A stretch of DNA of 64,000 nt, taken from Psammoneis japonica. Taxonomy: Eukaryota. The notes under the pieces are model-generated. The model searched no databases, was not told the DNA's origin, and saw nothing but the letters and a program-made list of their open reading frames with translations. This document shows, in pieces, positions 20,210 to 21,088 of the stretch (within the stretch, counting starts at the first letter, position 1; every line of letters starts with the position of its first letter). The stretch is from assembly GCA_008632985.1 (NCBI GenBank), contig QPGO01000146.1, forward strand, positions 124,001 to 188,000, written 5' to 3'. The position numbers and the translations under genes were made by a program.

Positions 20210-21088
20210 TTGATTTTGCGTTGGTGTGGGCTTGTCGCTGCTGCGGGTTGAGTTACGGCCACTGGGACTGCAACAGCCACAGCAGAAACGATTGCCCCAC
20301 TGACATTTCCAAGTAAAATGAATCGTCTACGACGGTGCCTCTTTTGTTCTCCGTGCGTGTCCTCCTCATCCTCTTCTCTTCAGGACCCGTCTCCTGCTGC
20401 GCTTCAGGATCCATCTCCTGCTGCGACATTGGTTCCTCCGTGTTTTTGTTTGTTGTGGTGGTGGTGTGGCTGCCAGTGGAAGAATCTCTGTTCATTGGAT
20501 CCTGGATCCTCAAATGGTGCTGTTGGGCGTTCGGATGATGAGGGTGAGTGCAATGGTGCATGCAAGGCACGTCAGCTCATCTTGGAACCACCTCGTTTCA
20601 ACCGATTTTCCAAAAAAACACAGGCAACATTGGCCACACCAGAAACGTCAAAGCCACGGAAACCACCGGAGGAGTCCAGGGGACCAACATCACTGCCTTC
20701 TGCTTTCGGAAGCAGCAGCTGCTCAAGTGCCCTCGACGCCAACGTCTCAGAAGCACTTCCACATGGCCGTGATGATGGCGGGGGTTCTGGGACATGCACA
20801 CATCCTTGATGACAGCAAGCAGTCTTGAAAGCTCCTCCGGGAGAACATGGCATCCATGCATGGCAAGCGATGAAGATGGCGCTGGCCGCCAAACAATCAA
20901 TGGCACAAAACTGCAATGACGGCTCCAAAACTGCACTCCTGATTGACAGCGCAGGTGTGCCTGCCGTCACCATTTTCCACAGTCTCTGATGCTTCTTTTG
21001 CTGTGCAGCAGATGGATCTGTGAAACAATCCTGTGACATGGCTGGTGCTGTCTGCGAGCTCTTGTGCAGATCCAAAATCGGCAAGCCA
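20210..21088 (-). pseudogene. Hypermutated partial duplicate of the receptor kinase gene (donor ~5435-6300)
   Basis: Collinear alignment; shared peptide SASETLxSRALEQLLLPKAEGSDVGPLDSSG. TpA sites are converted to TpG/CpA. Confidence 0.93.

Follow-up and report, generated by a model that had tools for sequence, protein, structure and literature searches.

Regional loss of TpA in a diatom genome: evidence of probable DNA-level TpA hypermutation in relics of transposons and in host-gene copies

In a stretch of 64,000 nt from the genome of the diatom Psammoneis japonica (GCA_008632985.1, contig QPGO01000146.1, positions 124,001-188,000, forward strand; hereinafter, the window, whose own numbering is used below), we observed four blocks, ~29 kb in total, from which the dinucleotide TpA has almost completely disappeared. 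The signature of the changes, their polarity, their occurrence on both strands and their sequence context make it highly probable that the DNA in these blocks underwent region-targeted TpA hypermutation at the level of DNA, accompanied by CpG decay. The blocks and the features recognized within them are as follows.

7985..15683: TA-free block 1, a degraded Ty1/copia element and further DNA (from composition, Pfam and a tblastn map)
20330..30254: TA-free block 2, which begins within the kinase copy described below and holds a TPR_10 repeat frame and a short MITE copy
23246-23632: short MITE copy in block 2
26332-27294, minus strand: TPR_10 repeat frame in block 2 (Pfam), with incomplete Tyr-to-Cys conversion
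36057..38035: TA-free block 3 (TA observed/expected ratio, o/e, 0.03; CpG 0.12-0.35), without a Pfam hit
46113..55558: TA-free block 4, with degraded copies of the VOMI and F-box genes next to it, one short MITE copy and a palindrome
46487-46882: short MITE copy in block 4
54532-54952: palindrome of 421 bp inside block 4

The o/e of TpA is 0.06 in the blocks versus 0.60 outside them, and where it stays at 0.02-0.06 across kilobases, the loss has reached saturation; TA is mildly under-represented in ordinary regions too (o/e 0.6). The CpG ratio is 0.47 in the blocks versus 0.99 outside, CA/TG is enriched in the blocks (1.57-1.78), and the GC content of the blocks is not below that of ordinary regions. 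The two losses are not strictly coupled: the stretch 54731-55558 of block 4 contains no TA, yet its CpG o/e is 0.81. The edges of the blocks are only ~100-200 bp wide, with the number of TA falling from 3-9 to 0 per 100 bp. The o/e of ApT (0.92 vs 0.94) is unaffected, and a route through 6mA at ApT was rejected on this ground; UV photoproducts of TA and a general avoidance of UpA were discarded because neither explains sharp blocks beside ordinary genes. The Pfam scan produced a match for only 6 of the 142 open reading frames scanned in the blocks, three of these being weak copia matches, and no viral genes were seen among the 142.

The first before/after pair is formed by a protein kinase gene and a copy of its 3' part.

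5251..7626, minus strand: donor gene, an intact protein kinase frame of 791 codons from stop to stop (Pkinase, E 1.4e-31)
5430..6315, plus strand: 'before' segment of the donor, covering the 3' part of the gene and containing 29 TpA that align with the copy
20203..21105, plus strand: copied kinase fragment ('after'), with frameshifts and two in-frame stops (codons 505 and 610)

The donor is of ordinary dinucleotide content, shares 59% identity with its nearest homologue (P0001), and aligns locally with the copy at 89% identity (5430-6315 vs 20203-21105). The preliminary description, made from the letters of the window, had counted about 23 TA sites in the donor at 5700-6225 and none in the copy at 20468-21015; we obtained the same counts, 23 and 0, and the eight strings that it quoted are found where it had placed them. 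A TA-free stretch of this length (548 bp) has a probability of ~2.6e-8 even at the o/e of 0.6 that is typical of ordinary regions. Over the whole alignment, the 29 donor TA gave rise to CA in 14 cases, TG in 9, and AA, AG and TC once each, with 3 kept, so that 23 of the 26 lost sites ended as CA or TG. All 3 retained TA are confined to the first ~130 bp of the copy (20203-20334), and from 20335 to 21088, none of the 24 donor TA survives (12 became CA, 9 TG and 3 something else). As the preliminary description had held, CpG decay is less complete than the loss of TpA: of the 58 ungapped CpG, 28 were kept and 28 converted (15 to CA, 13 to TG), against the loss of all 24 TpA. Elsewhere in the pair, change is sparse, affecting 26 of the 348 non-TpA A/T sites (7%) and 8 of the 323 other G/C sites (2%); calculated from the full loss of TA against the 2-7% at other sites, the per-base excess at TA is at least ~35-fold, and in the proposed comparison with A/T sites outside TA, the latter changed ~7-fold less per base.

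The direction of the change, from donor to copy, had been proposed on the strength of the intact reading frame of the donor. This frame does run through all 791 codons, and the outgroup sides with the donor: at 41 non-synonymous codon differences, P0001 agrees with the donor in 26 cases, with the copy in 1 and with neither in 14, and every Tyr (TAY) to Cys/His site at which P0001 has Tyr favours the donor as the ancestral form. The comparison with an outgroup, which the preliminary description had recommended as a check, accordingly does not give TG/CA as the ancestral state. The TA-free state continues past the kinase copy to ~30254, the copy being just the margin of a TA-free block of 10 kb, and the process is regional rather than peculiar to this duplicate.

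A second donor and the copies derived from it provide four further comparisons.

43278..45825, plus strand: second donor ('before'), of ordinary composition, holding VOMI and F-box frames
43076-44308, plus strand: VOMI-domain frame of the second donor
44703-45842, minus strand: F-box frame of the second donor
51641..55623, plus strand: second 'after' set, the VOMI- and F-box-derived copies
51641-53023 and 53264-53904: two tandem VOMI-derived copies
54103-54529 and 54954-55623: F-box-derived copies

Here, polarity was taken from the intact donor frames rather than from an outgroup, and all fates are counted among the six commonest listed for each gene pair. Among these fates, TA became TG 19 and 12 times and CA 17 and 9 times in the first and second VOMI copies, respectively, and was kept 2 and 0 times, which makes 57 TA converted to CA or TG in all, with the caveat that the counts for the two copies have donor positions in common. 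In the same accounting, CpG became CA or TG in 46 of ~62 and 22 of ~34 cases and was kept in 6 and 4. Conversion of the F-box pairs is less complete, with TA turned into CA or TG 5 and 11 times and kept 3 and 2 times among the commonest fates. Conversion of one tandem VOMI copy was largely independent of that of the other: at ancestral TA sites, the two show the same outcome 11 times and different outcomes 7 times. The VOMI pair also contains double flips, 9 from TG to CA and 9 from CA to TG. As a control, we examined two paralogue pairs of 74-80% identity, with both members in ordinary, unconverted DNA; there, TA was kept 32 and 24 times and became TG or CA 13 and 9 times, without any such bias. 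A side observation concerns insertions: two of the CG-to-CATG type are present in the kinase copy and the other pairs contain only scattered 2-bp TG insertions, so that no firm CG-to-CATG pattern emerged across the pairs.

Since TG/CA-to-TA differences are just what classical RIP leaves between copies, one could imagine the opposite polarity, whereby TG/CA would be ancestral and the donors would have gained TpA by RIP-like C-to-T change at CpA. However, the kinase outgroup sides with the donor in 26 cases and with the copy in 1, the homologues of the copia relic (see below) conserve Tyr where the relic carries His or Cys, the donors are intact frames of ordinary composition, like other gene-bearing DNA, and RIP would not create CpG as well. 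The outgroup and the Tyr columns refute this reading, to which we assign a negligible probability.

Transposon-derived sequences, which were converted as well, are exemplified by two elements in block 1.

7950-9665 and 10591-11991, minus strand: degraded Ty1/copia element (Pfam RVT_2, SH3_retrovirus and gag_pre-integrs; tblastn map)
9805..10598: MITE-like insertion inside the copia relic, with terminal inverted repeats of ~30 bp, member of a high-copy family

The translated copia relic contains no Tyr at all among 277 residues, versus a median of 3.9% in 150 homologues. In the 7 alignment columns in which Tyr is conserved in 30 homologues, the relic has His in 3, Cys in 3 and Trp in 1, and of 8 columns with conserved Arg, 4 still have Arg in the relic, while 3 have Cys and 1 has His. 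No LTR pair was found around the relic, only a 21-bp direct repeat. When metagenomes were scanned with the copia frame in its converted form, 68 pattern matches came up, none of them confirmed as a relative. For a second scan, the query was an alignment of 14 unconverted homologues, and 80 loci were kept of the 518 confirmed; the median TA o/e of these 80 related loci is 0.765, and the lowest 1-kb value is 0.28. None of the 80 is TA-free, in a sample that was picked by protein similarity and is therefore biased against converted copies; it is a control for composition, not evidence that other diatoms are without the process.

Conversion of the MITE is incomplete (TA o/e 0.34, CpG 1.14, 19 TA left). 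In the listed differences between this copy and other contigs, the window has TG and the others have TA in 6 of 6 cases; that all six lie on the same strand hints that a single event may strike one strand. The summed contig depth of the family is ~50,000 versus ~50. The copy is young. The 19 TA left in such a high-copy element imply that the process works slowly or in episodes at this place, or has ceased, and the partial conversion hints at recent activity. With the kinase pair, the VOMI and F-box pairs and the copia relic, this MITE copy makes up four independent cases from which signature and polarity are drawn.

These observations also bear on the possibility that no mutator is involved, the blocks being natively TA-poor foreign DNA or products of selection (for example, against TA-targeting transposons or nucleases), of GC-biased gene conversion or of an assembly artefact. 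The mild shortage of TA everywhere (o/e 0.6) is compatible with this possibility. However, host gene sequences were converted after copying, and the TA content of related copia elements is ordinary; under gene conversion, A/T-to-G/C changes of every kind should be raised, whereas 7% of non-TpA A/T sites changed and ApT is unaffected; and unless a mutational drive is at work, selection cannot rid pseudogene DNA of every TA. As for an artefact, eight contigs, assembled separately, match the blocks with 0 differences, although the respective runs possibly come from the window's own source sample, which favours the artefact reading to that extent, and because the runs may share this sample, the matches are not independent proof against it. 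Apart from the artefact component, the no-mutator explanation is already contradicted, and as a whole, it appears very improbable. With regard to depth, the summed contig depth is raised in parts of block 2, and much of block 1 is at single-copy depth, bearing in mind that summed contig depth is no copy number.

What defines the converted regions can be gleaned from the kinase copy, in which TA loss is complete only from 20330 onwards, although the homology begins at 20203, with the donors untouched; the process is not bounded by homology. Host sequences are converted once inside a block, so the target would be a place, not an origin, and the sparing of the donors suggests that the trigger is not simple homology. 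These facts have to be weighed against a repeat-induced process with a new specificity, in which duplicates would be recognized, perhaps at a sexual stage, and the blocks would simply be where the repeats lie. Such a process would fit the fact that every identifiable target is, or formerly was, repeated (the copia element, the MITE, the TPR array and the gene copies), the tandem duplication of the gene copies before conversion, and the raised summed contig depth in parts of block 2. RIP, as known in Neurospora and other fungi, changes C to T at CpA (or CpG), makes TpA from CpA, lowers the GC content, creates stop codons and mutates all copies. The process described here resembles RIP in its outcome, in that transitions specific to a dinucleotide, dense and on both strands, ruin transposons and gene duplicates within confined stretches, but it destroys TpA, raises GC, removes TAA and TAG, and spares donors with intact frames. 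That the donors of both gene pairs are untouched goes against repeat induction, since RIP strikes all copies, and so do the onset of complete TA loss 127 bp inside the homology rather than at its edge, the fact that the highest-copy element in the window is the one converted least, the unconverted paralogues of 74-80% identity in ordinary DNA, and the single-copy depth of much of block 1 (a summed contig depth, which is no copy number). We consider repeat induction unlikely and favour targeting that follows a silent-chromatin domain, not sequence homology.

On which strand and in which context the hits occur is informative with respect to the agent. The preliminary description had proposed that both strands are hit, and indeed, CA and TG outcomes interleave along the kinase copy (13 runs versus 12.0 expected) and are randomly interspersed in runs tests on four pairs (12 tests); one nominal p value of 0.035, uncorrected for the 12 tests, pertains to CpG fates in the first VOMI copy. 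TpA loss depends on the 3' neighbour, in the order TAT > TAC > TAG > TAA. The strand that was hit had the better-ranked 3' neighbour 50 times versus 24 (p 0.003, 22 ties), and the fraction of hits is 0.33 with a 3' G versus 0.63-0.65 with a 3' C or T. In the 23.7 kb of core block, none of the 661 expected-class NTAT/ATAN sites survives, versus 20 of 70 for TTAA (p 3e-23). This order of neighbours points to TAY as the working motif (RTA, should thymine be attacked). CpG decay shows a mild 5' T preference, with a ratio of 0.31 for TCGA versus 0.55 for CCGG. CpG decay and CpG-targeted hypermutation of repeats are familiar from vertebrates as well as from plants and, as the TCG type, from Pucciniomycotina; the excess of CpG-to-TpG/CpA changes in the same DNA and the 5' T preference are reminiscent of such methylation-type decay, which, however, cannot explain the loss of TpA, here faster and more complete than that of CpG.

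The same data speak to the possibility of ADAR-like A-to-I hyper-editing of transcripts, in which case the blocks would be retrocopies, reverse-transcribed from edited RNA and re-inserted. One of the blocks does contain a retrotransposon, and A-to-G change that prefers a 5' U is reminiscent of ADAR activity, a point made in the discussion section of a preprint on Bigelowiella natans, a chlorarachniophyte (Mettrop et al., bioRxiv 10.64898/2026.01.13.699255). A retrocopy, however, would carry one-strand changes, whereas here T-to-C and A-to-G interleave randomly on the same strand; moreover, the converted copies include neighbour genes in opposite orientation along with intergenic DNA, and conversion ends part-way through a copy. 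Furthermore, ADARs favour a 3' G, which is disfavoured here, and to our knowledge, they are metazoan enzymes. We hardly believe, then, that the blocks originate from edited RNA.

The only previous appearance of the TpA signature in print that the literature search brought up is the B. natans case itself, in that 2026 preprint, which concerns TpA-specific hypermutation of integrated viral DNA (10.64898/2026.01.13.699255). According to the preprint, mutation-accumulation lines acquired de novo A-to-G/T-to-C changes almost exclusively at TpA, at ~1000-fold the background rate and in some lineages only; the signal comprised two viral insertions and a weak statistical footprint, consisting of clusters of 1-kb windows in which TpA is depleted and CpA and TpG are enriched; TpA-poor genes were enriched in TE-type domains; and DNA-acting ADAT2 enzymes were cited (10.64898/2026.01.13.699255). 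By this account, the two systems share the change of TpA to TpG or CpA depending on the strand, the absence of hypermutation at other A/T sites and the regional clustering. The hosts differ, a diatom (Stramenopila) here versus a member of Rhizaria there, as does the extent of the loss, with TA o/e of 0.02-0.06 over kilobases here versus 0.45 in the giant-virus region reported for B. natans. The main text of the preprint contains no counterpart to the co-located CpG decay, the TAY preference, the TG/CA flips or the before/after pairs; conversely, B. natans offers de novo mutations in real time, whereas the diatom process is known from its footprint alone. For diatoms, the literature search brought up neither TpA loss nor TpA hypermutation. 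The targets reported for B. natans are viruses, and those seen here are the copia relic, the MITE, the copies of the host kinase, VOMI and F-box genes and the TPR gene, that is, transposon relics and host DNA, so that foreign origin would not be required.

Because TpA is self-complementary, attack on A is indistinguishable from attack on T. For the chemistry, a plausible candidate, which we put forward with some reservation and which was proposed for Bigelowiella too, is that a polynucleotide deaminase of the TadA/ADAT type turns adenine into inosine. The analogy is with TadA and ADAT2-ADAT3, and with ADAR, in all of which deaminated adenine is read as G, although ADAR differs in the preferred 3' neighbour and in the mixed strands seen here. 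In tRNA, A34 always follows U33, so the UA context is native to TadA/ADAT. We know of no instance of TadA, ADAT or ADAR acting on chromosomal DNA in defined domains.

Alternatively, the thymine of TpA could be attacked, through TET/JBP-type oxidation to 5-hydroxymethyl- or 5-formyluracil, which would mispair with G and yield T-to-C changes in the motif RTA. With TpA palindromic, every result fits this route equally well, and both decaying dinucleotides would then share one description, a 5-methylpyrimidine followed by a purine. In dinoflagellate DNA, 5-hydroxymethyluracil occurs preferentially at TpA and TpC, and 5-formyluracil is mutagenic. However, a literature search found no evidence of 5-hydroxymethyluracil-type bases in diatoms, and the sole published case of the signature is interpreted in favour of an adenine deaminase, also short of proof. 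We regard thymine attack as rather improbable.

Under the scenario that we favour, a DNA-level mutator would turn T:A into C:G at 5'-TpA-3' in defined stretches of the chromosome, from a few kb to 10 kb long, which comprise transposon relics and anything else within, host-gene copies that strayed there among them. Either strand would be open to attack, so that TpA ends as TpG or CpA, and the hits would be many and independent, continuing until TpA is exhausted, with the efficiency set by the 3' neighbour of the adenine (T best, followed by C, G and A in this order). CpG in these stretches would change to TpG or CpA, most simply by deamination of 5-methylcytosine, the probable source of the CpG decay. 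TG and CA would thus serve as a common sink, with later transitions out of TG/CA pushed back in. The outcome would be missense inactivation and loss of regulatory motifs, with Tyr codons, TAA/TAG stops and TATA all gone, and the process would conceivably serve as genome defence. In its complete form, this scenario is a diatom 'reverse RIP' defence, in which a TAY-specific DNA adenine deaminase, probably of TadA/ADAT ancestry, erases TpA in silent chromatin, and which chlorarachniophytes would share; we propose it tentatively, as a possibility worth pursuing.

Targeted hypermutation of selfish DNA is exemplified by fungal RIP and vertebrate APOBEC, both of which act on cytosine. The signature reported for B. 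natans is now seen at saturation in a diatom, that is, in an ecologically weighty group with working genetics, along with new facts on the mechanism: host sequences in a block are converted, which points to place rather than origin as the target, donors are spared, a neighbour rule applies, TpA loss outruns CpG decay, and TG/CA is the sink. Which enzyme is responsible and what directs it thus become testable questions. For genome annotation, a word of caution is due, given that such blocks conceal transposons and pseudogenes from profile searches. If the proposed scenario is correct, this would be an old defence, possibly SAR-wide, that went unnoticed because its products resemble unannotatable, moderately GC-rich DNA; the enzyme would be a natural adenine editor of DNA in a double-strand context; and in these algae, the TA-free state could mark heterochromatin by sequence alone.

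Alignment of a protein kinase gene in ordinary DNA (5430-6315) with its degraded copy (20203-21105; copy B) shows that the two are in the same orientation and share 89% identity, with 11 small indels in the local alignment. The preliminary description had held that the copy lost every TpA of the donor, and a recount reproduces its numbers exactly, with 23 TA in the donor at 5700-6225 and none in the copy at 20468-21015; all eight strings quoted there are found where it placed them. The observation and its interpretation both hold, and the finding extends beyond what was noted. 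Among the 29 donor TpA aligned to the copy, 14 became CA, 9 became TG, one each became AA, AG and TC, and three were kept, all within the first 130 bp (20203-20334); at 20335-21088, none of 24 donor TpA survives. The 58 ungapped CpG of the pair were kept in 28 cases and became CA in 15 and TG in 13, and changes affected 26 of 348 other A/T sites and 8 of 323 other G/C sites. Even when the general TA deficit of the window's ordinary parts is allowed for, the 548-bp TA-free run has a probability of ~2.6e-8.

The donor belongs to an intact frame of 791 codons that encodes a protein kinase domain, and the copy contains frameshifts and two stops in that frame. Donor and copy differ in the encoded residue at 41 codons that are also aligned in the kinase homologue used as the outgroup (P0001; 59% identity, the sole close homologue among 972 hits). 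At these codons, the outgroup agrees with the donor in 26 cases, with the copy in one and with neither in 14, so the outgroup comparison that the preliminary description had proposed favors its direction of change, from donor to copy. In particular, six donor tyrosine codons (TAC), two of which directly precede the kinase Y-M-A motif, are replaced in the copy by cysteine (TGC) or histidine (CAC) codons, and the outgroup has tyrosine at all six; a seventh donor tyrosine became aspartate via a change outside the TpA signature.

Several other features of this pair are worth recording. At 20763-20764 and 20847-20848 of the copy, CATG replaces a donor CpG, as would result from insertion of AT within CG; other pairs contain four 2-bp TG insertions, which form no firm pattern alongside these sites. 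In the Arg-rich tail of the kinase gene, 21 bp are duplicated in tandem (5543-5584); the duplication is absent from copy B and also from a contig of sequencing run X2, ~96% identical to the gene (a second allele or a paralogue), which has the copy's state at 5720, 5729 and 5997.

The per-kilobase profile delineates four TA-free blocks totaling 29.0 of the 64 kb, which are given here with the principal elements inside them.

Blocks and elements of the window
~7985-15683: block 1
~20330-30254: block 2
~36057-38035: block 3
~46113-55558: block 4
7950-9665 and 10591-11991, minus strand: Ty1/copia relic, block 1 (weak Pfam hits, tblastn map)
9805-10598: MITE-like element, 794 bp, ~30-bp terminal inverted repeats, inside the copia relic
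26332-27294, minus strand: TPR_10 repeat frame, block 2; 321 codons open, seven and a half 42-residue repeats (Pfam E 9e-90)

In the blocks, TA is nearly absent (observed/expected 0.06 versus 0.60 in the rest of the window), CpG is halved (0.47 versus 0.99), CA (1.78 versus 1.18) and TG (1.57 versus 1.17) are in excess, and ApT is unchanged (0.92 versus 0.94). The edges are sharp, with 3-9 TA per 100 bp dropping to 0 over one or two bins, often only a few hundred bases from an intact gene. The left edge of block 2 falls inside the kinase copy, where homology begins at 20203 and complete TA loss at 20330, so this boundary is that of the block rather than of the duplication. Since TA-free DNA lacks TAA and TAG on both strands, an extended open frame within a block is no evidence of a gene. 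Eight contigs of the sequencing runs match the blocks without a single difference; these runs may be the assembly's own source. Block 1 is flanked, 107 bp and 166 bp outside its edges, by a 21-bp direct repeat (7858-7878 and 15851-15871; 20/21 identical), which may reflect an inserted segment of ~8 kb with its outer ~100-170 bp spared conversion, or mere chance, the search being small (E 2e-4). In the kinase copy, too, the first 127 bp were spared.

Self-comparison revealed a second case, that of VOMI-domain and F-box genes (43278-45825), which sit in ordinary DNA and have intact frames, and their degraded copies in block 4 (51641-55623). Counting the six commonest fates per pair, donor TA in the two tandem VOMI-derived copies, VOMI1 (51641-53023) and VOMI2 (53264-53904), changed to TG at 19 and 12 sites and to CA at 17 and 9, with 2 and 0 sites kept, and CpG changed to CA or TG at 46 and 22 sites and stayed intact at 6 and 4; in the F-box copies, TA became CA or TG 5 and 11 times and was kept 3 and 2 times, with most CpG retained. 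As a control, two paralogue pairs with both members in ordinary DNA (74-80% identity) kept 32 and 24 TA, with no bias. The three paralogues that served as controls (38333-39445, 40638-41737 and 55994-56964; 72-78% DNA identity) belong to a family for which no Pfam match was found. One F-box-derived copy (54731-55598) has an open 276-codon frame, most of its CpG and no TA over 828 bp. Between two F-box-derived pieces lies a 421-bp near-perfect palindrome (54532-54952; 86% self-complementary), a possible source of hairpin RNA.

The same signature is seen in the copia relic, whose RNase H-side frame contains no tyrosine among 277 residues, versus a median of 3.9% in 150 homologues. At seven columns with tyrosine conserved among 30 homologues, the relic has histidine (3), cysteine (3) or tryptophan (1), and at eight conserved arginine columns, arginine (4), cysteine (3) or histidine (1); the remaining conserved residues are mostly retained. 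In 80 related metagenome copia loci, a sample biased toward intact elements, TA content is ordinary (median observed/expected 0.765; lowest 1-kb window 0.28), so the TA-free state is not native to this type of element. The MITE-like element within the relic is nearly ordinary in composition (TA 0.34, CpG 1.14) and all six listed differences from other contigs are TG here and TA elsewhere, all on the same strand, on which we place no weight; it looks like a younger insertion with conversion in progress. In run X1, the summed contig depth of its family is about 1000 times the single-copy level (~50,000 versus ~50). Two shorter copies (23246-23632 and 46487-46882; ~390 bp each) have only the ends in common with it, and all three lie in TA-free blocks. 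The TPR_10 frame displays such conversion inside a single gene: the S-Y-N-N position has tyrosine in three repeats, in resistant contexts, and cysteine in four, and the leftover TA recur with a 126-bp period; the frame may be a functional gene that selection still maintains, or one inactivated only recently.

Among 96 TA to CA/TG events, with some donor sites common to VOMI1 and VOMI2, the strand hit had the better 3' neighbor (T > C > G > A) in 50 cases and the worse one in 24, the two being tied in 22 (p 0.003). By 3' base, the hit fractions were T 0.65, C 0.63, G 0.33 and A 0.44. The survivors confirm this rule: only 48 TA remain in 23.7 kb of core block, none in NTAT/ATAN (661 such sites in ordinary DNA), 20 in TTAA (versus 70) and 14 in CTAA/TTAG (versus 105; p 3e-23). 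This gives TAY as the working motif, which would read RTA were thymine the base attacked. In all four pairs tested, CA and TG outcomes are randomly interleaved (runs test; 13 runs versus 12.0 expected for the kinase), that is, both strands were hit, in many events. VOMI1 and VOMI2 have derived changes in common, yet have the same state at only 11 ancestral TA sites and different states at 7, so they were converted mostly independently after duplicating. Double changes in the VOMI pair (TG to CA 9, CA to TG 9) are expected if a transition from TG or CA remakes TA or CG, which is then driven back to either product; by this token, the process is sustained. All TA are lost versus a 2-7% difference at other sites; simple arithmetic on these counts puts the per-base excess at ~35-fold or more and makes TpA loss several-fold faster than CpG decay; the segment 54731-55558, with no TA and CpG at 0.81, is consistent with this.

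The blocks, then, underwent regional, TpA-specific T:A to C:G conversion at the DNA level, on either strand, in many events, governed by the 3' neighbor and accompanied by CpG decay. The responsible reaction may be adenine deamination by a TadA/ADAT-like enzyme. In tRNA, A34 is always preceded by U33, so the UA context is native to this family, and an ADAR-like enzyme is less likely because 3' G is disfavored. Alternatively, the thymine of TpA could be attacked, for example, by oxidation to a mispairing base; TpA being self-complementary, sequence alone cannot tell the two apart. Targeting was probably through silent chromatin and not by homology, given that the donors are spared, a conversion edge falls inside homology and conversion is least advanced in the element with the most copies; the process may have a defensive role.

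The block signature matches the TpA signature described in the chlorarachniophyte Bigelowiella natans (Mettrop et al., bioRxiv 10.64898/2026.01.13.699255). According to that preprint, 230 of the 231 single-nucleotide changes that arose de novo in two regions of integrated viral DNA (210/211 and 20/20) were A-to-G or T-to-C, on TpA; 124 clusters of TpA-poor, CpA- and TpG-rich windows are present; and an ADAT2 homologue is put forward as the enzyme responsible. Diatoms, CpG and the wider sequence context go unmentioned in the preprint's main text, and no reports of TpA loss or hypermutation in diatoms were found in the literature searched. The organism studied here is a diatom: the best named matches of the ribosomal protein eS1 gene in the window (60408-61160; 79-83%) are all from diatoms, including Thalassionema, Helicotheca, Cyclophora and Mayamaea, with no identical protein among the sequences searched. 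The present finding is a new, saturated case of a mutational process otherwise described in just one recent preprint and extends that process to a new lineage; the diatom adds mechanistic constraints that are absent from the main text of that work.
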